Assembly: GCF_056746865.1 (NCBI RefSeq)
Contig: NZ_CM163382.1
Length of the DNA: 64,000 nt
Strand: one strand, 5' to 3'
In this document: one piece after another, positions 805 to 53,483 of the stretch
Numbering within the stretch: position 1 is the stretch's first letter
Layout: each line of letters begins with the position of its first letter
Notes under the pieces: generated by a model
What the model was told of the DNA's origin: nothing
The model's database searches: none
What the model saw: the letters and a program-made list of their open reading frames with translations, nothing else
Position numbers and translations under genes: made by a program

Positions 805-915
805 CGTTAGATTGCCTGATGCGCTACGCTTATCAGGCCTACGAGGATCGTGCAATATATTGATTTTGCAAGATTGTGTAGGCCGGATAAGGCGTTTACG
901 CCGCATCTGGCATGA
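805..915. repeat. REP/BIME-like palindromic units
   Basis: gcctgatgcgctacgcttatcaggcctac ... gtaggccggataaggcgtttacgccgcatc, typical REP consensus. Confidence 0.7.
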
Positions 916-1315
916 ACAGTGTGCATTTTGGCAATAAATATGAAACCAACTGTCATGTCGGTTTTTTTAAAGGCCGAAGGTGGTAAACCTTCGGCCTTAG
1001 CTACGTTTCCTCAGTTATTCAATAAACTGACGGATCAGTTCCAGCAGCGCGATTAGCGCCTTAAGAACGATGAGAACTGCCTCTCTCCAAATTAGAGCAC
1101 CAGAATCAGCACCACCTGTATCCTGACCAGGACTTAAAAGTACTTTTCCGCACTGCGGTAATCCCTTGAGGCAGTATCACTACTAGCGTCGGGATTGTAT
1201 CGCCAACATAGCTGTTTGAATATGTAGGCATCCTGACTTATAATTCATTTGCTAGATGAGGACTGTTTCATTTCTGCCCGGAACCACCAAGTCTTGGGCG
1301 GAAAAAATAAAAAAA

Positions 1316-1339
1316 CCGACTGTCATGTCGGTTTTTTTA
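1316..1339. terminator. Bidirectional rho-independent terminator (ccgac-tgtcat-gtcgg hairpin flanked by A- and T-tracts)
   Basis: Perfect stem with A-tract upstream and T-tract downstream; lies just downstream of the selU stop on the minus strand; a near copy occurs at 946-967. Confidence 0.6.
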
Positions 1340-1401
1340 TATCTGTATTCTGGTGCAACCATTCTGTTCTCACGACAATCGCCGTTTCAGAATACCGCCC
1401 A

Positions 1402-14347: not shown

Positions 14348-14433
14348 TTACCTGAATTTACCGCAAAAAAAGCCACGGTATAAACCGTGGCAAAATCCAA
14401 CATAGCTAAAAATAATCAGGCGAGTGGTATGAC

Positions 14434-35834: not shown

Positions 35835-35911
35835 GCGCCCTTAGCTCAGTTGGATAGAGCAACGACCTTCTAAGTCGTGGGCCGCAGGTTCGAATCCTGC
35901 AGGGCGCGCCA
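35835..35911 (+). tRNA. argU: tRNA-Arg (anticodon TCT, reads AGA/AGG)
   Basis: 77-nt cloverleaf GCGCCCTTAGCTCAGTTGGATAGAGC...TCTAA...GGTTCGAATCCTGCAGGGCGCGCCA. Confidence 0.95.
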
Positions 35912-35926
35912 TTACAATTCAATCAG

Positions 35927-37090
35927 TTACGCCTTCTTTATATCCTCCATAATTCCAGAGTGGGACATATTTGGGACATTATCACCAAAAATGTCGTCTA
36001 TTTTCCTCGCATGCTCTGTCAAATGATTAGGCGCAAGGTGAGCATACCTACGAACCATTTCTATGGACTCCCATCCGCCCATTTCCTGAAGCACTGATAA
36101 TGGGACGCCTGACTGAATCAGCCAGCTTGCCCAGGTGTGTCTGAGGTCATGGAAACGGAAATCTTCAATTCCTGCACGACGACAAGCTGATAGCCATGAT
36201 GTCTTGCTGTCGATGCGCATCTTCCTGACCGCAGGCGTTGATGTTCCATCTGCTCGCTTAGCCGCCTTGGTATGTACAAACACCCATTTGTGATGCTTGC
36301 CTATTTGATCACGCAACACTTTACAGGCGGTATCGTTCAGCGCCACACCAATGGCGCGGTTTGATTTGCTCTCTTCTGGATTCACCCAGGCAACTCGTCG
36401 CTGCATGTCGATTTGTTGCCATTCCAGATTTATGATGTTCGACTTTCTCAGACCAGTTGCCAGCGCAAACTTGACGACAGATTTCAGTGGTTCGGGGCAC
36501 TCATCAATAAGGCGTTTTGCTTCCTCCTTTTCCAGCCATCTGACTCGCTTGTTTCTGACCGCTGGTATCTTGATGACAGGCGCTTTTTCCAGCCACTTCC
36601 AGTCGCGTTCTGCAGCACGGAGAATGGCCTTTATCATGGCAAGATGCTTTGCCTTTGTCTGAGTTGATACTGGCTTTGGTTCATAAACAGGCAGTTCTTT
36701 ACCTTTCCTGATGGCGGCCTGAACTTTCTGTTTCCATATTTCTTTCGTCTTTCTGTTATGCATTCTGCTTACAGCAGAGTAAATCTTTGCCTCCGAGATA
36801 TCTTTAAGCCTTATACCCTCAAAATGTTCAAGCCAGAACTCAATCCGGCTTTTATCTGAATCGAGAGATTTTTTATCAGCTTTTTCCTCAAGCCATCTTA
36901 GGCAGGCCTCTTCAAAAGTGACATCAGGTAAATCCCCTAGCTTTTCTACTCGCCAGAGTTCTGCTTTTCGCTTGTCGTGCAACTCCTGAGCTTGCCGCTT
37001 GTCCTTTGTGCCAAGAGATTCCTTAATTCGTTTCCCGCCCGGGAGCGAATACGAGGCATACCATATTTCATTTCTGCGGAAGAGTGACAT
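35927..37090 (-). CDS. intD: Tyrosine integrase (DLP12 IntD type)
   Basis: 387 aa; C-terminal catalytic R..HxxR..Y region; adjacent to tRNA. Confidence 0.9.
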
Positions 37091-37317
37091 TTTCTTTCCT
37101 CTGTTATGCCATCACCCGCGCTCACCTGGACAGTATGCAGCGGAGACTGAAGCGCCGCAATGCAGGCTTGCCGTGTTGTGAGGTAAGGAGATTTTGGCTT
37201 GGTTGGATCTTTACGTGTTGCCTGTAGGCGGCCTGTTCGTATCCAGTTGGTGGCGGTTGGTCTGGATATCTTAAGAAACTGACAGGCCTCATCGAGTGTG
37301 AGGCTGTATGATTCCAT
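36946..37317 (-). CDS. Excisionase-like HTH protein (AlpA/Xis family), overlapping int start
   Basis: Track ORF 36946-37347; likely start [31 protein letters not shown]; exact 3' boundary uncertain. Confidence 0.55.
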
Positions 37318-37567
37318 GGTTACCTCTGCTTTTTGAACGCATGTCACGTAACTTCTTAATGTGTTCTGCCGTTTCGATCTCTTCTGCTATCCGATCTGCA
37401 TCAGCTTTATTCACAGGTTCAAAGTCATGATTAAAGCGGAACATGCTGGCGATACATGTTCTGCCTTTTCGGATGTAGTGAACTTTGTTGTGGGTAGAAC
37501 GCAGGATTTTGCAGGGAGTGCCGTGGTGGTCGACGTACCAGGTGTTAGGAAAAATGATTCTGAACAT
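37289..37567 (-). CDS. Hypothetical phage protein
   Basis: 92-aa ORF in early-left operon; no recognisable motif. Confidence 0.35.
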   Translation of the reverse strand: MFRIIFPNTWYVDHHGTPCKILRSTHNKVHYIRKGRTCIASMFRFNHDFEPVNKADADRIAEEIETAEHIKKLRDMRSKSRGNHGIIQPHTR

Positions 37568-37614
37568 TTTTACACCTCAGTTGGACGATGTTGAAATTTG
37601 CTGCTTTGAGGCCA

Positions 37615-37833
37615 TCATAGTCCCCATTGTTTGTTCTTAAGTTCGATCTCCTCCTGGCAACTTGCACAAGTCCGACAACCCTGAACAGCCAGGCGTCTTC
37701 GCTCATCTATCGGATCGCCACACTCACAACAATGAGTTGCGGATACAGTCTGGTAGTTCAGACGACGCATTTTTATTGCTGTATTGCGCTGTAATTCTTC
37801 GATTTCTGATGCTGAATCAATGATGTCTGCCAT
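37615..37833 (-). CDS. TraR/DksA-family C4 zinc-finger protein
   Basis: 72 aa; CxxC-x17-CxxC (CCECGDPIDERRRLAVQGCRTCASC). Confidence 0.7.
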   Translation of the reverse strand: MADIIDSASEIEELQRNTAIKMRRLNYQTVSATHCCECGDPIDERRRLAVQGCRTCASCQEEIELKNKQWGL

Positions 37834-37925
37834 CTTCCATTAATCCCTGAATTGTTGGTTAATACGCTTGAGGATGAATGCGAACAATAAAAAAGGAGCC
37901 TGTAGCTCCCTGATGATTTTGCTTT

Positions 37926-38243
37926 TCATGTTAACCGTTCCTTAAAGACGCCGTTTAACATGCCGATCGCCAGGCTTAAATGAGTCGGTGTGAATCCCAT
38001 CAGCGTTACCGTTTCACGGTGCTTCTTCAGTACGCTACGGCAAATGTCATCGACGTTTTTATCCGGAAACTGCTGTCTGGCTTTTTTGATTTCAGAATTA
38101 GCCTGACGGGCAATGCTGCGAAGGGCGTTTTCCTGCTGAGGTGTCATTGAACAAGTCCCATGTCGGCAAGCATAAGCACACAGAATATGAAGCCCGCTGC
38201 CAGAAAAATGCATTCCGTGGCTGTCATACCGGGTCTCTCTCAT
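37926..38243 (-). CDS. Hypothetical phage protein
   Basis: 105-aa ORF (possibly starting internally at MTPQQENAL). Confidence 0.35.
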   Translation of the reverse strand: MRETRYDSHGMHFSGSGLHILCAYACRHGTCSMTPQQENALRSIARQANSEIKKARQQFPDKNVDDICRSVLKKHRETVTLMGFTPTHLSLAIGMLNGVFKERLT

Positions 38244-38415
38244 CTGCTTCTGCTTTCGCCACCATCATTTCCAGCTTTTGTGAAAGGGATGCGGCTAACG
38301 TATGAAATTCTTCGTCTGTTTCTACTGGTATTGGCACAAACCTGACTCCAATTTGAGCAAGGCTATGTGCCATCTCAATACTCGTTCTTAACTCAACAGG
38401 AGATGCTTTGTGCAT
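38224..38415 (-). CDS. Hypothetical small phage protein
   Basis: 63-aa ORF upstream of exo in same orientation. Confidence 0.35.
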   Translation of the reverse strand: MHKASPVELRTSIEMAHSLAQIGVRFVPIPVETDEEFHTLAASLSQKLEMMVAKAEADERDPV

Positions 38416-38566
38416 ACCGCCTCCCGTTTATTATTTATCTTCTCAGCCAGCCGCTGTGCTTTCAGGGGATTTCTGATAACAGAAAGGCCGGGAAATACCC
38501 AGCCTCGCTTTGTAATGGAGTAGACGAAAGTGATCGCGCCTACCCGGATATTATCGTGAGGATGCG

Positions 38567-39247
38567 TCATCGCCATTGCTCCCCAAATACAAAACCAATT
38601 TCAGCCAGTGCCTCGTCCATTTTTTCGATGAACTCCGGCACCATCTCGTCAAAACTCGCCATGTAATTTTCATCCCGCTCAACCACGACATAATGCAGGC
38701 CTTCACGCTTCATTCGTGGGTCATAGTTGGCAAAGTACCAGGCATCTTTTCGCGTCACCCACATGCTGTACTGCACCTGGGCCATGTAAGCCGACTTTAT
38801 GGCCTCGAAACCACCGAGCCGGAATTTCATGAAATCCCGGGAGGTAAACGGGCATTTCAGTTCAAGGCCGTTGCCGTCACTGCATAAACCATCGGGAGAG
38901 CAGGCGGTGCGCATACTTTCGTCGCGATAGATGATCGGGGATTCAGTAACATTCACGCCGGAAGTAAACTCAAACAGGGCTCTGGCGTCGTTCTCGTACT
39001 GTTTTCCCCAGGCCAGCGCCTTAGCATTAACTTCCGGAGCCACACCGGTGCAAACCTCAGCCAGCAGGGTGTGGAAGTAGGACATTTTCATGTCAGGCCA
39101 CTTCTTTCCTGAGCGGGGCTTTGCTATCACGTTGTGAACTTCTGAAGCGGTGATGACGCCGAGCCGTAATTTGTGCCATGCATCATCCCCCTGTTCGACA
39201 GCTCTCACGTCGATCCCGGTACGCTGCAGGATAATGTCCGGTGTCAT
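38567..39247 (-). CDS. exo: Lambda-type 5'-3' exonuclease (Red alpha)
   Basis: 226 aa, near-identical to lambda Exo as I recall it ([40 protein letters not shown]...). Confidence 0.95.
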
Positions 39248-40406: not shown

Positions 40407-40697
40407 TTAGTGATTCAGACCGTTGCCGCGTCCGTCGAGAAAAACTTCCACGAGCAAGTCACGGGTATAAGTGCGCTCAATGCCGCGATGCAGATAAAGT
40501 CGTCCGCGTAAATTAGCTGATGCAGTCCAGGTACCATCTTTGCGTTTGACCAGCATTCCTGGCATGACCGCACCGCGATTAACGGTCTGCGTTCCGTAAT
40601 GTTGATGAACCATAAAAACTCCTGCCCGTAAGCTGGGCTGCTGAACATATAAAGACTTCTGCGCGTATTCAGGCGGTGGATGGCCGCCGGTTGTCAT
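40407..40697 (-). CDS. Hypothetical protein, first ORF downstream of the putative pL
   Basis: 96-aa ORF with GAGG RBS; no recognisable N/kil/cIII motif. Confidence 0.4.
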   Translation of the reverse strand: MTTGGHPPPEYAQKSLYVQQPSLRAGVFMVHQHYGTQTVNRGAVMPGMLVKRKDGTWTASANLRGRLYLHRGIERTYTRDLLVEVFLDGRGNGLNH

Positions 40698-40879
40698 AAC
40701 TAAGCCGCCTCGTTGAAGCGACTAAGGTATGAAATGTTGAGTTGATTTCAGCTGGTCACACCGACGTTCACGCGTCCGTTTCATCCCTCGCACTCCCCGA
40801 AGCCTGCTGAAATTCAAGCTGCGGATCTAAGCGGTCATCGCAACGGTGAATCAGGTAGTTGCCGTATCGTTGTGTTGTT

Positions 40880-40970
40880 GCGATGAACTTATTTAAAACT
40901 ATAGTTGTTTTATCGTCAACAACAAAAGTTGTTTTATTGGTTGTTTTAGATATAACTGGTTGTATTTAGG
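40880..40970. promoter_or_regulatory. Putative OL/pL operator-promoter region
   Basis: Repeated TGGTTGT/ACAACAA half-sites (caacaacaaaagttgtt, ttattggttgtttt, taactggttgtat) shared with the cI-cro intergenic region. Confidence 0.55.
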
Positions 40971-41057
40971 ATGGATTTATTTTGTGACTTGAATCGCATA
41001 GCGATAACTGAAGCGAGGTTATGGTGGTTTTTTTAACGGTGTGTGTGATGAGGGGAG

Positions 41058-41087
41058 GGCAAAAGAAAACCCGGCACGGTGGCCGGG
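41058..41087 (-). terminator. Rho-independent terminator ending the cI-distal operon (tImm analogue)
   Basis: cccggcacggtggccggg hairpin followed on the minus strand by a U-rich tract, directly after the 310-aa gene stop. Confidence 0.7.
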
Positions 41088-41095
41088 TAGCATCA

Positions 41096-42028
41096 CTATT
41101 CGATTTTTTTAACCATGTAGTTACGTCGTGATGTTCCTAATCTTTCATTGTGAATCTCAGAAACGCTTACTACGAGCGATATTCGTTCACCAACTTTATA
41201 TTTACTTTGAATTTCTCCTAACATATCAATCGGATAAGAAGCCTTTATTTTTCCAAGCTCGCTTGCAATCTCCAATTTCCCGTACATGGATAAAATAGCA
41301 AGTTCGCCTGATATATGCTCATCCGGTAGCTGAATGACCTTCGTTAAAGCTAAGCGAGCATTCAGTTTTTTTATATCTTCTGAAGAAATTGACACTTGTC
41401 TGGTACCATCACTTAAAGGTCCAATCCAAGTAAGATCAAAGTTAAGACTATATTTTTCGCACTCATTTATGATGTTTTTTAGGTTAGCTGTTGATTGCGA
41501 ACCAATTTCGGCAATTTTAGCCGTGAATGTTTCTTCATCAATGGATGAGAGTAGTGCAAAAATCTCCTTAACAGCATGACTGGATACTGTTTCGATGAGC
41601 TCGCAAGAACCAGTAGAAAAAGTAACACCTAACTTCGTCGAACCTGGACGCAAGTCTGCCAATCTCATGTCTAATGATTTTTTAACATCAATCGGCACAC
41701 GACTAGAATCTTTCCCAGATCCAAGTCGGTAAACTGCTTTCTGTACAAGGGATGCGAGATTACCTGAAATTACAGATAGAATATCTAACGGAATAGACCC
41801 GAAATCGACCAAAACACCTTTTAATCTCAACTCCATGAAATCACGTAAAGGATGTTGGTTATCGATTGCACGTTGTCTCTCTCGGAGATCGCTCAGATGG
41901 GAGTCAAGTGATCTAAATATAATGTCATCAGCAAATGATCTCCCCTTATTTTGAGCAAGCAGATCCACATCGCGTTGAATGAACGCAATTCGCTCCTTGA
42001 GGGAGTTGAATGTTTTTTCTTCGCTCAT
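41096..42028 (-). CDS. Hypothetical protein, distal gene of the rexAB-position operon
   Basis: 310 aa; AT-rich; start overlaps stop of upstream 157-aa gene (ATGA); no recognisable family. Confidence 0.6.
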   Translation of the reverse strand: MSEEKTFNSLKERIAFIQRDVDLLAQNKGRSFADDIIFRSLDSHLSDLRERQRAIDNQHPLRDFMELRLKGVLVDFGSIPLDILSVISGNLASLVQKAVYRLGSGKDSSRVPIDVKKSLDMRLADLRPGSTKLGVTFSTGSCELIETVSSHAVKEIFALLSSIDEETFTAKIAEIGSQSTANLKNIINECEKYSLNFDLTWIGPLSDGTRQVSISSEDIKKLNARLALTKVIQLPDEHISGELAILSMYGKLEIASELGKIKASYPIDMLGEIQSKYKVGERISLVVSVSEIHNERLGTSRRNYMVKKIE

Positions 42029-42498
42029 AACATTACCCTCACGAGGCCTTTAGGATTCTCCTTCCGATCAAAACCAAACCACCCTCTCCAGTAACTTCGC
42101 CTTTCACTATAATCGATTTCTGGATGATTTTCAGGCAGCAAAAGAACGTCAATGCTGTAGTTTTCTTTAATAAAATCTCTATTTAACAATGAGCTGACCA
42201 ATGGCATCAGCGTGTTTGGCAAAGAGTTTAGGGCCAAATAATCGACGACCACGAGTATATCTATGTCATCAGGTTCAGGTTTCTCTGTAGTGAATGAACC
42301 ATCGATCCACACTTCAGAGAAACATAGACACTGCTGATTAACAAGTTTAAATTGCTCAATAAGCTGTATAAAATTACAGTATAGCATACTTCTTCTAACG
42401 GATTTTGGGAAGGTGTCGACACAAAGAGACTTGATGCCATCACTATCCATATCATGAAATCCTGCTGTAAGAAGAGGTGGGAAGCTAGGCTTTTCCAT
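42025..42498 (-). CDS. Putative minimal nucleotidyltransferase-fold protein, proximal gene of the rexAB-position operon
   Basis: 157 aa; GS-x9-DxD motif (WIDGSFTTEKPEPDDIDILVVVD) typical of the Pol-beta NTase superfamily; AT-rich. Confidence 0.55.
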   Translation of the reverse strand: MEKPSFPPLLTAGFHDMDSDGIKSLCVDTFPKSVRRSMLYCNFIQLIEQFKLVNQQCLCFSEVWIDGSFTTEKPEPDDIDILVVVDYLALNSLPNTLMPLVSSLLNRDFIKENYSIDVLLLPENHPEIDYSERRSYWRGWFGFDRKENPKGLVRVML

Positions 42499-43274: not shown

Positions 43275-43373
43275 AAATGTACAACCAAGGTTTTATTCCA
43301 TCAAACGAAAATGGTTGTTGACTAAAAACAACCATAGTTTTAATCTTGATTCAAATTAACCACGGAGGTTGTT
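43275..43373. promoter_or_regulatory. Putative OR/pR/pRM operator region
   Basis: Inverted repeat ATGGTTGT-n9-ACAACCAT (43311-43335) plus further ACAACCA/GGTTGTT half-sites between divergent cI and cro. Confidence 0.6.
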
Positions 43374-43604
43374 ATGAACCCAGCTATCAAAACAGCGATC
43401 AATATCGTTGGTTCACAAAAGAAACTGGGCGCTGCTTGCGAAGTTTCACAGCAGGCCGTCTATAAGTGGCTTCACAACAAAGCAAAGGTATCCCCTGAAC
43501 ATGTCGGCAGCATTGTTACGGCTACTGGTGGAGTAGTGAAGGCATACCAGATTCGCCCGGATCTTCCGAAGTTGTTTCCACACACCGAAAAGAACGCAGC
43601 TTAA
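43374..43604 (+). CDS. Cro-like HTH regulator (YdaS-like)
   Basis: 76 aa; HTH KKLGAACEVSQQAVYKWL; first gene rightward of the operators. Confidence 0.7.
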   Translation: MNPAIKTAINIVGSQKKLGAACEVSQQAVYKWLHNKAKVSPEHVGSIVTATGGVVKAYQIRPDLPKLFPHTEKNAA

Positions 43605-43673
43605 ATTTCCATTTCACGCTCTTTAACAATAAGCAATCAACTTAACAGTCAATTCAAACTAAAGGAGTCAATT

Positions 43674-46474: not shown

Positions 46475-47977
46475 TTAAATTGCATCTGCAAACTCTGGGG
46501 TTTTTCGCTCAGGTATAATTGATGAGTTGCTGTTGTCACTTTTTTTATTTTCATGATTACGAATAGCCAATGACTCATTAAAGTCTTTTGCGACTGCTGT
46601 CTCAATAAATTCAATTTCTGAATCAGAGTGTTTTTTAACAGCTTCTTTGATCTCATCCAGAGTAACATAGAAAAACTCTTTTCTACGATTTACAAGATTG
46701 ACTCTCTTTTTATCGAAGACATCATGTAGTTTTTTTTCTAATGATGGAGCGTCCTCCGAATAAATCATGGCATGTACATCAAAAATAAAAGGAACAGATG
46801 CATCACCGAGCTCATTTACACGGTCTTGCGGATCAAGACGTCGTGTCATGCCTATTTTATAAACATTCTCCCCAAAAGAACCTATGTTCGAAATAATATA
46901 AACATGACCTTGTTTGGTTTGTTGTGCCATGGATAATGCTCTTTGATGCTTTGATTCAGCCTGCGACAAACTCTGTTCTAGTTCGGCAATGCGATTTTCG
47001 AGGCGCTGCTTCATGTCACCAGTAACTTTTTCCATTTCCTTTCTTGCAGCTTCAATTGCTTTTTTATAACGGCGCTCTTCTGCCTCTGCGTCTTGCATGG
47101 CCTTTTCTATTTCTCGTTGTGCACGCTCCTCCTCTCTCATTTGTGCCCTTATTTCTGCCTGTTCTTCTTTTTCTTTCTGTTTTTGCTCACGATATTCATG
47201 GGTAAGCCACAATTCCTCAAGTTTTTTATTGAGGTATTTAGTGTTTATATATATGTGATTTTGCTCGTTTAGTTTATTTATGGCCTCAAATGCCTTTGTG
47301 ATGCGTTCTTCCATTTTAGTGATGTTTTTCCACGTGCAATTGCTAATTGCAGCATCACATTCATTATTAAATGCTCTAGTAGTTAGCCTGATATTTCTGT
47401 CTGTCATTTTTTTACCCTCTGCTCGAGAGCCTTCAACAGTCCATTGGGTTGTACAATATACTGCGCCAGAGTGGGTTTTATCCCGCAGCATTAATTTCTG
47501 TTCATCCCTGATGGATTTTATTTTGTTTTTAAATTGCTCTGAATCTTCAAAATTAAAATGAGGTTCGTAAAATCCTAGTTCGGCTAGCTCAACATCTTCT
47601 GAATAAATAGAAATTTGCCTTACTAGTTTATCATATATTTCTTTCTTCTCTTTATAAGTTCTTCTTAGCTCTTGGATTTGTTTATTGATACCATCCATTT
47701 TTTCAATGGTGTTTGTTAGTTCATTATTGGCATTTTCTTTTACTTTTAGGGATTCTTCTTTTATTATGGAGCATTCTTGCTCTGTTTTCTCAATAAGCTT
47801 CTTACATTCTTCTTCTACATTAAAATAATCTGCAAAGCGAGATTTGTATTCTTCATTTTTTTGATTGCTATCACTTAATTCTAATTGTATTTTTTTGATG
47901 CGTTTGATTGCAGCTATATAAAGAACAAGAACAACCAATAAAAATATGATTGCAAGTAATAGAGGAGTTTGAGTCAT
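46475..47977 (-). CDS. Membrane-anchored coiled-coil protein with C-terminal T5orf172/GIY-YIG-like domain (DUF4041-like middle region)
   Basis: 500 aa; N-terminal TM helix (LLLAIIFLLVVLVLYIAAI); long E/K/R-rich coiled coils; C-terminal GHVYIISNIGSFGENVYKIGMTRRLDPQDRVNELGDASVPFIFDVHAMIY; antisense to flanking phage genes; strongly AT-rich. Confidence 0.7.
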   Translation of the reverse strand: MTQTPLLLAIIFLLVVLVLYIAAIKRIKKIQLELSDSNQKNEEYKSRFADYFNVEEECKKLIEKTEQECSIIKEESLKVKENANNELTNTIEKMDGINKQIQELRRTYKEKKEIYDKLVRQISIYSEDVELAELGFYEPHFNFEDSEQFKNKIKSIRDEQKLMLRDKTHSGAVYCTTQWTVEGSRAEGKKMTDRNIRLTTRAFNNECDAAISNCTWKNITKMEERITKAFEAINKLNEQNHIYINTKYLNKKLEELWLTHEYREQKQKEKEEQAEIRAQMREEERAQREIEKAMQDAEAEERRYKKAIEAARKEMEKVTGDMKQRLENRIAELEQSLSQAESKHQRALSMAQQTKQGHVYIISNIGSFGENVYKIGMTRRLDPQDRVNELGDASVPFIFDVHAMIYSEDAPSLEKKLHDVFDKKRVNLVNRRKEFFYVTLDEIKEAVKKHSDSEIEFIETAVAKDFNESLAIRNHENKKSDNSNSSIIPERKTPEFADAI

Positions 47978-48467: not shown

Positions 48468-48789
48468 TTGTAACTGTTGTAGCAGCTATGGATGTGATCA
48501 TCATGGTGTCCATTTACTGGGGTTGACGACATGATTTATCCGGCGCTATATTCTGTGCGTTGCCGCAAAATCGGCACACGGGATTGGCGTCCCGGGATAC
48601 TACTCAACGCATACCGCGTTAAGCGGTTTTTTTGTGCGCTAAGCACGGCTATGCCCAAATTATGGTGGGCTGTGTGAGGGCTTCTTCGGAAGCGCCGGGT
48701 TTGAGTAGCCGGTTACGCCAACCTTACACAGTTCACCACCAGTCGATTGGCGTCGTTGGTGGTGATGGTTAACCTGATGAGGTGATACT

Positions 48790-52400: not shown

Positions 52401-53483
52401 TTAGAACTGGTAAACCAGACCTACAGCAACGATGTCATCAGTATCAATACCAGCTGTTTTGGTAAACTTACTATCGTCAATTAAGTTGATTTTGTAATCA
52501 ACAAAAGTGGACATGTTTTTATTAAAGTAGTAAGTAGCACCGACATCGACATACTTGACTAAGTCTCGGTCACCATGAACACCAAGGTCTTTACCTTTTG
52601 ACTGAAGGTAAGCAACAGATGGGCGCAGACCGAAGTCAAACTGATATTGTGCTACTGCTTCAAAGTTTTGTGCTTTGTTTGCAATATGGTTATTACCAAA
52701 AACGGTCATATTCTGAGTTTCAGAATATGTGGTAGCCAGATAGATATTGTTCGCATCATATTTCAGGCCTGCAGCCCATACTTCCGCATTTTTGCCGGAG
52801 GCATTGAATTTGCTCTTACCATAGGCGACCTGACCGTCAGTGCGATCTGATTTAGCATAGGTTGCACCCACGCCGAATCCTTCATACTCATAAGTAGTGG
52901 AGAAACCGAAACCATCACCATTGGCTTCAGTTACGTCAGTGCGGTCATTTTTACCCTGATACTGAGCAGCAAAGTTCAGGCCATCGACCAGACCAAAGAA
53001 GTCGTTGTTACGATAAGTTGCAACACCAGTAGTGCGACCAGTCATGAACACATCTGTTTGGGTCCAGGTATCACCACCGAATTCTGGCAGGACGTCAGTC
53101 CACGCACCGATGTCGTATGCTACACCGTAGTTACGGCCGTAATCGATTGAGCCGTAATCACCAAATTTCAGGCCTGCAAATGCAAGACGGGTTTTGTCTT
53201 TGGAAGAACCTTGAGATTCAGCGCGGTTGCCTTTGAATTCATATTCCCACTGACCGAAACCAGTCAGTTGATCGTTGATTTGGGTTTCACCTTTGAAGCC
53301 AAGACGGGCATAAGTAGTATCACCATCATCTGCATCATTAGAGGAGAAGTAGTGCTTAGCATTAACTTTCCCGTACAGATCCAGCTTGTTACTGTCTTTA
53401 TTATAAATTTCAGCTGCCTGAGCAGACATCGCCATCAGTACTGATGCAGCTACAGCAGAAATTGCCACTGTTAATTTTTTCAT
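52401..53483 (-). CDS. nmpC: General porin (OmpC/OmpF/NmpC family), uninterrupted
   Basis: 360 aa; signal peptide [23 protein letters not shown]; C-terminal ...GLVYQF. Confidence 0.88.

Follow-up and report, generated by a model that had tools for sequence, protein, structure and literature searches.

A lambda orf73-type gene encoding a TraR-like zinc-finger protein in a lambdoid prophage at the argU site of Escherichia coli

The gene at 37615..37833 in the analysed stretch of E. coli chromosome (64 kb; hereafter, the window) is the known orf73 of the phage lambda exo-xis region, and hence not new, a point missed by an earlier reading of the same DNA made from its sequence alone (hereafter, the sequence-only reading). 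Its 72-aa product is a TraR-like zinc-finger protein that very probably binds RNA polymerase (RNAP) in its secondary channel and inhibits rRNA and ribosomal-protein promoters independently of ppGpp in early lytic development, by analogy with its lambda counterpart.

The gene lies in a lambdoid prophage integrated at tRNA-Arg(tct), i.e. the argU/DLP12 site of E. coli (Table 1). The tRNA gene, the integrase and the flanking host genes (the sfm/fim cluster and fimZ) together identify the attachment site as argU (DLP12). Leftward, the order is repressor region, probable pL, kil-like gene, gam, bet, exo, orf60a/orf63/orf61-like genes, orf73, the DUF4222 gene and, after an xis-like remnant, int. The right-hand side of the repressor region has cro, replication genes, nin-region genes, an antiterminator gene annotated QuuD, lysis genes and head genes. 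The tRNA gene, the integrase, the leftward exo/bet/gam/kil-like order and the repressor region bear out the sequence-only reading, which had described the gene as prophage-encoded and part of the early-left region. The 1.3 kb around orf73 is 95-99% identical in 178 phage records, including many lambda-like isolates and Stx-converting phages.

Table 1. Coordinates in the window of orf73 and of the features discussed with it.
Feature	Position	Strand	Remarks
tRNA-Arg(tct)	35835..35911		
Integrase gene	35927..37090	minus	387 aa; annotated intD in matching genomes
DUF4222 protein gene	37289..37567	minus	92 aa; takes the place of the lambda ea22/ea8.5 block
orf73-type CDS	37615..37833	minus	72 aa; ATG start; stop codon within the coordinates
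Translation-initiation region	37834..37848	minus	AGGGA at -15..-11 and GGAAG at -5..-1 from the ATG; predicted RBS
Intrinsic-terminator-like hairpin and T run	37883..37911	minus	AGGGAGCTACAGGCTCCTT TTTTATTGTT; between orf61-like gene and orf73; predicted
Counterpart of predicted promoter p1 (lambda/phi24B)	37884..37916	minus	BPROM prediction; overlaps the hairpin (PMC4195576 Table 3)
orf61-like gene	37926..38243	minus	full length, 105 aa from the first ATG; RefSeq start at an internal Met gives 73 aa
orf63-like gene	38224..38415	minus	DUF1382
orf60a-like gene	38388..38576	minus	DUF1317
Second terminator-like hairpin	38506..38484	minus	from scan
exo	38567..39247	minus	
kil-like gene	40407..40613	minus	
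Probable pL promoter/operator	40890..40937	minus	TTGACG, 17 nt, TTAAAT; AACAAC/GTTGTT repeats

Several neighbors of orf73 deserve a remark. The orf61-like ORF is full length in the window, whereas lambda orf61 has been shortened by a frame change; the full-length form is already in the literature, where it is predicted to be homeodomain-like (PMC8614690). At the integrase end, an xis-like helix-turn-helix ORF (36946..37347, minus strand; 133 aa with a GTG start, 123 aa if the ATG at 37317 is taken as the start) extends 145 nt into the integrase gene, and RefSeq annotates only a 66-nt 'incomplete' HTH pseudogene there.

Elsewhere in the prophage, genes of other kinds were recorded. A 500-aa protein encoded between ren and the nin region (46475..47977, minus strand) is matched by the PADLOC PD-Lambda-1 models (E 1.9e-198) and named 'DUF4041' or 'SNIPE associated domain' in RefSeq; the gene is one of anti-phage defence. 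Directly downstream of the S24 repressor gene, in the lambda rexA/rexB position (41096..42498, minus strand), two genes encode a 157-aa DUF6932 protein (PDC-M63A, E 7e-43) and a 310-aa protein (PDC-M63B, E 4e-42). They form a candidate defence pair and are followed by a strong terminator-like hairpin (41088..41069). A defence-system role for the orf73 product was rejected, the PADLOC match being weak and meaningless (E 0.007), and PADLOC returned no match for its DUF4222 neighbor. At 48561..48743 (plus strand), an Rfam match to isrK (58.7 bits) adjoins one to C4 antisense RNA (74.8 bits), just upstream of a gene with a P22AR C-terminal (antirepressor-like) domain. The late region carries a cargo gene, a porin gene annotated ompC (mapped coordinates 52401..53483, minus strand), between the QuuD-annotated antiterminator gene and the lysis genes. 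In the chromosomal part of the window, the host small RNAs ES036, AgrB and STnc480 scored above the Rfam gathering score at 835..877 (minus), 1252..1340 (plus) and 14361..14427 (plus).

The 72-aa C4 zinc-finger ORF named in the sequence-only reading was recovered at exactly the same coordinates, with an ATG start. RefSeq genomes with identical DNA have the same start and stop annotated, with the product 'TraR/DksA family transcriptional regulator', and the product (MADIIDSASEIEELQRNTAIKMRRLNYQTVSATHCCECGDPIDERRRLAVQGCRTCASCQEEIELKNKQWGL) is identical to WP_000763385.1. As many as 48 ORFs of at least 30 aa overlap a 3.5-kb stretch of this region, so ORF length by itself proves nothing. Compared with lambda orf73, the dN/dS comes to 0.19 for the 71 codons and to 0.13 when only codons 1-60 are counted, values that rest on small counts (12.5 synonymous and 10.5 non-synonymous differences). 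The translation-initiation region differs from that of lambda by one substitution (GGAAG in the window, GAAAG in lambda).

The protein begins with the DxxDxA motif at residues 3-8 (D3-I-I-D6-S-A8), followed by a C4 zinc-knuckle motif, C35-x2-C38-x17-C56-x2-C59 (CxxC-x17-CxxC), whose four cysteines are the predicted zinc ligands. The C4 motif of the sequence-only reading thus stands, with the correction that the cysteines total six and not four; C36 and C53 lie beyond the C4 set, as they do in lambda Orf73. A six-frame scan of the window for CxxC-x15-20-CxxC found the motif only in the orf73 product, and tblastn with F TraR matched only the orf73 gene (E 3.9e-6). No second TraR-like gene was found in the 64 kb by that scan or by tblastn with the orf73 product and F TraR.

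Membership of the TraR/DksA family, as the sequence-only reading had proposed, is supported. The Pfam domain PF01258 (zf-dskA_traR) matched residues 33-64 with 37.3 bits (gathering cut-off 24.9, E 2.8e-9), and PHROG 54, 'DksA-like zinc-finger protein', matched residues 1-70 (E 3.6e-26); TraR alignments and structural matches agree. With NCBIfam TIGR02419 (C4_traR_proteo) the protein scored 53.9 bits, under the curated cut-off of 59.7, a shortfall that is not counted against membership because the validated lambda Orf73 also falls short (54.7 bits, compared with 80.7 for F TraR). The cut-off leaves out the whole Orf73 group, and this is a matter of model calibration, not a biological difference.

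Within the family, the features examined point to the TraR subfamily. The protein is 72 aa long, with DxxDxA at the start of a single long helix (residues 3-29 of the model); R46/R47 are the counterparts of TraR R48/R49, and E64, in the C-terminal helix (57-70 in the model), corresponds to TraR E66. HMMER aligned the full length to the F TraR chains on RNAP (5w1s_M and 6n57_M). In these alignments TraR D3/D6/A8, C37/C40/C58/C61 and R48/R49 fall opposite D3/D6/A8, the four zinc cysteines and R46/R47 of the window protein, respectively. DksA proper was ruled out by size (72 vs ~150 aa), by the single N-terminal helix and by sub-threshold scores, none of the NCBIfam DksA models being matched at threshold by the orf73 product, and DksA chains matched the structural model over only part of their length (target-normalised TM ~0.27). 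The label 'TraR-like' fits more exactly than 'DksA-like', since the product has no coiled coil of the DksA kind and, judging from TraR, should be active independently of ppGpp.

A database search with the orf73 product returned 226 homologs, for the most part Escherichia, Citrobacter and Enterobacter proteins named as members of the TraR/DksA family. Conservation was read from an alignment of 54 of varying closeness (32-94% identity). In it, D6, A8, C35 and E64 are invariant, D3, C38, R46, R47, G52, C53, C56 and C59 are at least 90% conserved, and position 36 varies. The extra cysteine C53, conserved at this level, is therefore a feature of the Orf73 group.

The AlphaFold model built on this alignment (mean pLDDT 81.8) consists of helix 3-29, the zinc knuckle and helix 57-70. 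Its top two PDB matches in Foldseek are solved chains of TraR on RNAP, 6n57_M and 5w1s_M (probability 1.00, TM 0.52-0.56 over 67 columns), followed by YbiI and then DksA; over residues 31-67 the best PDB match by sequence is YbiI. The rmsd of the match to the TraR fold is high (~7 Å), and the E-values from Foldseek get no better than 5e-3 to 1e-2. We ascribe the high rmsd to the helix angle, which differs between the free and RNAP-bound forms; free-state Orf73 models have been reported to superpose poorly on RNAP-bound TraR, with different helix angles (PMC8614690).

The closest characterized relative is lambda Orf73 itself, whose ORF is unannotated in NC_001416 (30392..30613, minus strand, between ea22 and orf61) and encodes MADIIDSASEIEELQRNTAIKMRRLNHQAISATHCCECGDPIDERRRLVVQGCRTCASCQEDLELISKQRGSK. 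The two proteins align without gaps over 71 residues, with 62/71 identical (87%) and 67/71 similar (E 3e-47). At the DNA level, near identity to lambda runs from the end of orf61 through the intergenic hairpin and T run into most of orf73. Given this identity in protein and DNA, the window gene is assigned as the ortholog of lambda orf73, with a mosaic junction at its 3′ end. The gene order exo-orf60a-orf63-orf61-hairpin-orf73, leftward between exo and int, is common to the window and lambda, and a conserved exo-xis block has been described (PMC8614690).

The proteins share the six cysteines, DxxDxA and the ERRRL segment, and differ in length (73 aa in lambda, 72 aa in the window) and by nine substitutions (H27Y, A29T, I30V, V49A, D62E, L63I, I66K, S67N and R70W), five of them among the final 10 residues of the alignment. 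The sequence of the C-terminal helix and tail is EEIELKNKQWGL in the window and EDLELISKQRGSK in lambda Orf73, the window tail being one residue shorter. The DNA likeness to lambda breaks down within the last ~12 codons of orf73 (37289..37650 region), and the tail differs because the recombination junction falls there; this junction is the sole local peculiarity of the gene. Beyond it, the 3′ neighbor is ea22 in lambda and the DUF4222 gene in the window prophage, which also differs from lambda in its site (argU vs attB-lambda) and in the absence of a recognisable N. Every residue named as important in lambda Orf73 (PMC9239242) is retained in the window protein.

Other relatives are more distant. 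F-plasmid TraR (PDB 5W1S, 6N57/6N58, 6PSQ-6PSV) resembles the window protein in length (~72-73 aa), in its helix / zinc knuckle / helix architecture, in DxxDxA at 3-8, in CxxC-x17-CxxC, in the RR pair and in the conserved Glu of the C-terminal helix. The identity is only ~31-32%, the window protein has two extra cysteines, and TraR comes from a conjugation operon while the window protein comes from a phage early operon. What E. coli DksA (PDB 1TJL, 5VSW, 7KHI) and the window protein have in common is the zinc-finger domain of C4 type (PF01258) and the principle of an acidic tip; the window protein is half the size of DksA and is without its coiled-coil hairpin and ppGpp-binding residues. The zinc-finger core is also shared by E. 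coli YbiI (PDB 2KGO) and by P2 Orf82, VP882 Orf61, VHML Orf8 and X. bovienii Gp34, all much more distant in sequence and found in other genomic contexts; in some of this set DxxDxA is incomplete and potency is lower.

By its position and by analogy with lambda, the probable pL, ~3 kb upstream of orf73, is the likely start of the transcript that reaches the gene; an inverted copy of this promoter/operator is found on the pR side (43300..43343). The leftward transcript must read through a terminator-like hairpin to reach orf73. The hairpin proper (37911..37893, minus strand) lies 60 nt 5′ of the orf73 start codon in our scan and has the sequence AGGGAGCTACAGGCTCC, identical in lambda. This hairpin and the second one (38506..38484) correspond to the predicted terminators t2 and t1 of lambda/phi24B, respectively (PMC4195576 Table 4). 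The lambda terminator name 'tL3' was considered for the upstream hairpin and set aside, the literature being uninformative on the location of tL3; the documented name is the predicted 't2'. In lambda, orf73/ea22 mRNA is lower than that of upstream genes, dropping past the predicted t2, while in phi24B orf73 mRNA is high (PMC4195576). The counterpart of the predicted promoter p1 has the -35 element TCATCA and the -10 element TTTTATTGT, one substitution from TTTTATTAT in lambda, and it failed the criteria of our sigma-70 scan.

Between the probable pL and the kil-like gene (region 40614..41095), no N-like ORF was found, and Rfam gave no match there. The pL leader gave no HK022 match in blastn and no evidence for an HK022-type put site, and its predicted fold is unremarkable (z -1.48). 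A 15-mer, CGCAGCTT(G/A)AATTTC, is common to the pL leader (40809..40823) and the cro end (43595..43609), and a boxA-like CGCTCTTTAACAA follows after cro at 43617..43629 (plus strand). Read-through of the leftward terminators bears on the amount of the orf73 protein, not on its identity.

The function of Orf73 has been studied in lambda. In the work of Gopalkrishnan et al. (mBio 2022), Orf73 of lambda was purified along with four further TraR homologs from phages (PMC9239242), and the latter (P2 Orf82, VP882 Orf61, VHML Orf8 and X. bovienii Gp34) all bind RNAP and complement dksA (PMC9239242). On RNAP, lambda Orf73 and DksA compete for one and the same site; lambda Orf73 also complements a dksA null, and inhibits rrnB P1 with an IC50 of ~50 nM without ppGpp, and rpsT P2 too (PMC9239242). 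The two experiments suggested by the sequence-only reading, dksA complementation and RNAP binding, have thus already been published for lambda Orf73, both with positive results (PMC9239242). The D3N and D6N variants are defective; the key residues are given as DxxDxA, the C4 motif, the counterparts of R48/R49 and the C-terminal helix that contacts beta Si1 (PMC9239242), and the same hallmarks, including the acidic C-terminal helix residue, appear in a modelling review (PMC8614690). In vivo, pL drives the expression of lambda Orf73 at 5-20 min after induction; the protein slows the growth of the host, makes rRNA and r-protein promoters less active and raises phage yield ~4-fold. The lambda lytic promoters tested are unaffected (PMC9239242). 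Its activation of host promoters is weak if any, unlike that of TraR, and the two extra cysteines, remarked on in the same study, may be the cause (PMC9239242).

We therefore consider how the window protein would act, in terms of the 87% identity to lambda Orf73 and the matches to TraR on RNAP, both of which support the suggestion of the sequence-only reading that it binds the RNAP secondary channel and modulates host transcription. The ORF, its family, its orthology and synteny with lambda orf73, its complete set of the named functional residues and its predicted fold come directly from the present analysis. RNAP binding, the promoter effects and the lytic role are carried over from the published lambda protein, and the molecular steps also draw on the TraR-RNAP structures. 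Upon infection, or once the prophage is induced, Orf73 would be translated from the early leftward (pL) transcript. Its N-terminal helix would enter the RNAP secondary channel and bring DxxDxA (D3, D6, A8) close to the active site, the globular part that holds the zinc (C35/C38/C56/C59, together with R46/R47) would sit on the channel rim and the beta′ Si3 insertion, and the C-terminal helix (E64) would contact beta Si1. Open complexes at rRNA and ribosomal-protein promoters would then be destabilised without DNA binding and without ppGpp, and host transcription would be diverted from ribosome synthesis, with slower host growth and a higher phage yield as the likely result.

The physiological role of Orf73 is disputed in published work, as pro-lytic through yield (PMC9239242) or as pro-lysogenic (PMC8614690). 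That the protein uses the same secondary-channel mechanism and serves mainly to bias the phage toward lysogeny and host survival, not lytic yield, is in our judgment unlikely. Deletion studies in lambda/phi24B found host survival and lysogenisation lower without orf73, and the review that summarises them classes orf73 and ea22 as pro-lysogenic (PMC8614690); the conflict with the earlier pro-lysogenic report is acknowledged in PMC9239242. Against this, lambda orf73 mutants of kinds that should be non-polar (point mutants and in-frame deletions) gave a ~4-fold lower yield after induction (PMC9239242), and the two roles are not mutually exclusive. Earlier work also implicated the lambda orf73-ea22-ea8.5-orf55 cluster in inhibiting the initiation of host replication (cited in PMC9239242). 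A main action of the window protein as a block of host chromosome replication initiation, e.g. via lower dnaA transcription, is very improbable, as the effect on dnaA is weak and neither partner gene, ea22 or ea8.5, is present in the window prophage, which has the DUF4222 gene instead.

It is most improbable that orf73 is a silent passenger behind a terminator in an N-less phage, either unexpressed or without a fitness effect. The upstream hairpin, the lack of any N-like ORF in the stretch from the probable pL to the kil-like gene, and the fall of lambda mRNA downstream of the predicted t2 (PMC4195576) would fit such a passenger, but the dN/dS of 0.19 vs lambda orf73 indicates purifying selection, the functional residues are invariant across homologs of 61-94% identity, and phi24B orf73 is well expressed despite the same hairpin (PMC4195576). 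Of the 5426 complete E. coli genomes, moreover, 3311 carry the gene intact at 90% identity or more, as do 185 phage records. One could still ask about the recombinant tail EEIELKNKQWGL, which by analogy would lie in the helix contacting beta Si1. We regard it as improbable, but conceivable, that the tail alters potency or permits promoter activation and, separately, that the p1-like sequence allows low expression in the lysogen; if true, host growth and stringent-type transcription would be tuned, with no need for induction, by a very common prophage gene, related copies of which are found in ~61% of complete E. coli genomes.

As a discovery the gene carries little weight: its family, its mechanism and the experiments proposed for it are already published for the near-identical lambda protein, and identical DNA is present, already correctly named, in many complete E. 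coli genomes. Its value is in annotation, where it serves as a marker for the exo-xis block in a lambdoid prophage integrated at argU, and its frequency shows how widely a probable ppGpp-independent modulator of host transcription has spread in E. coli.
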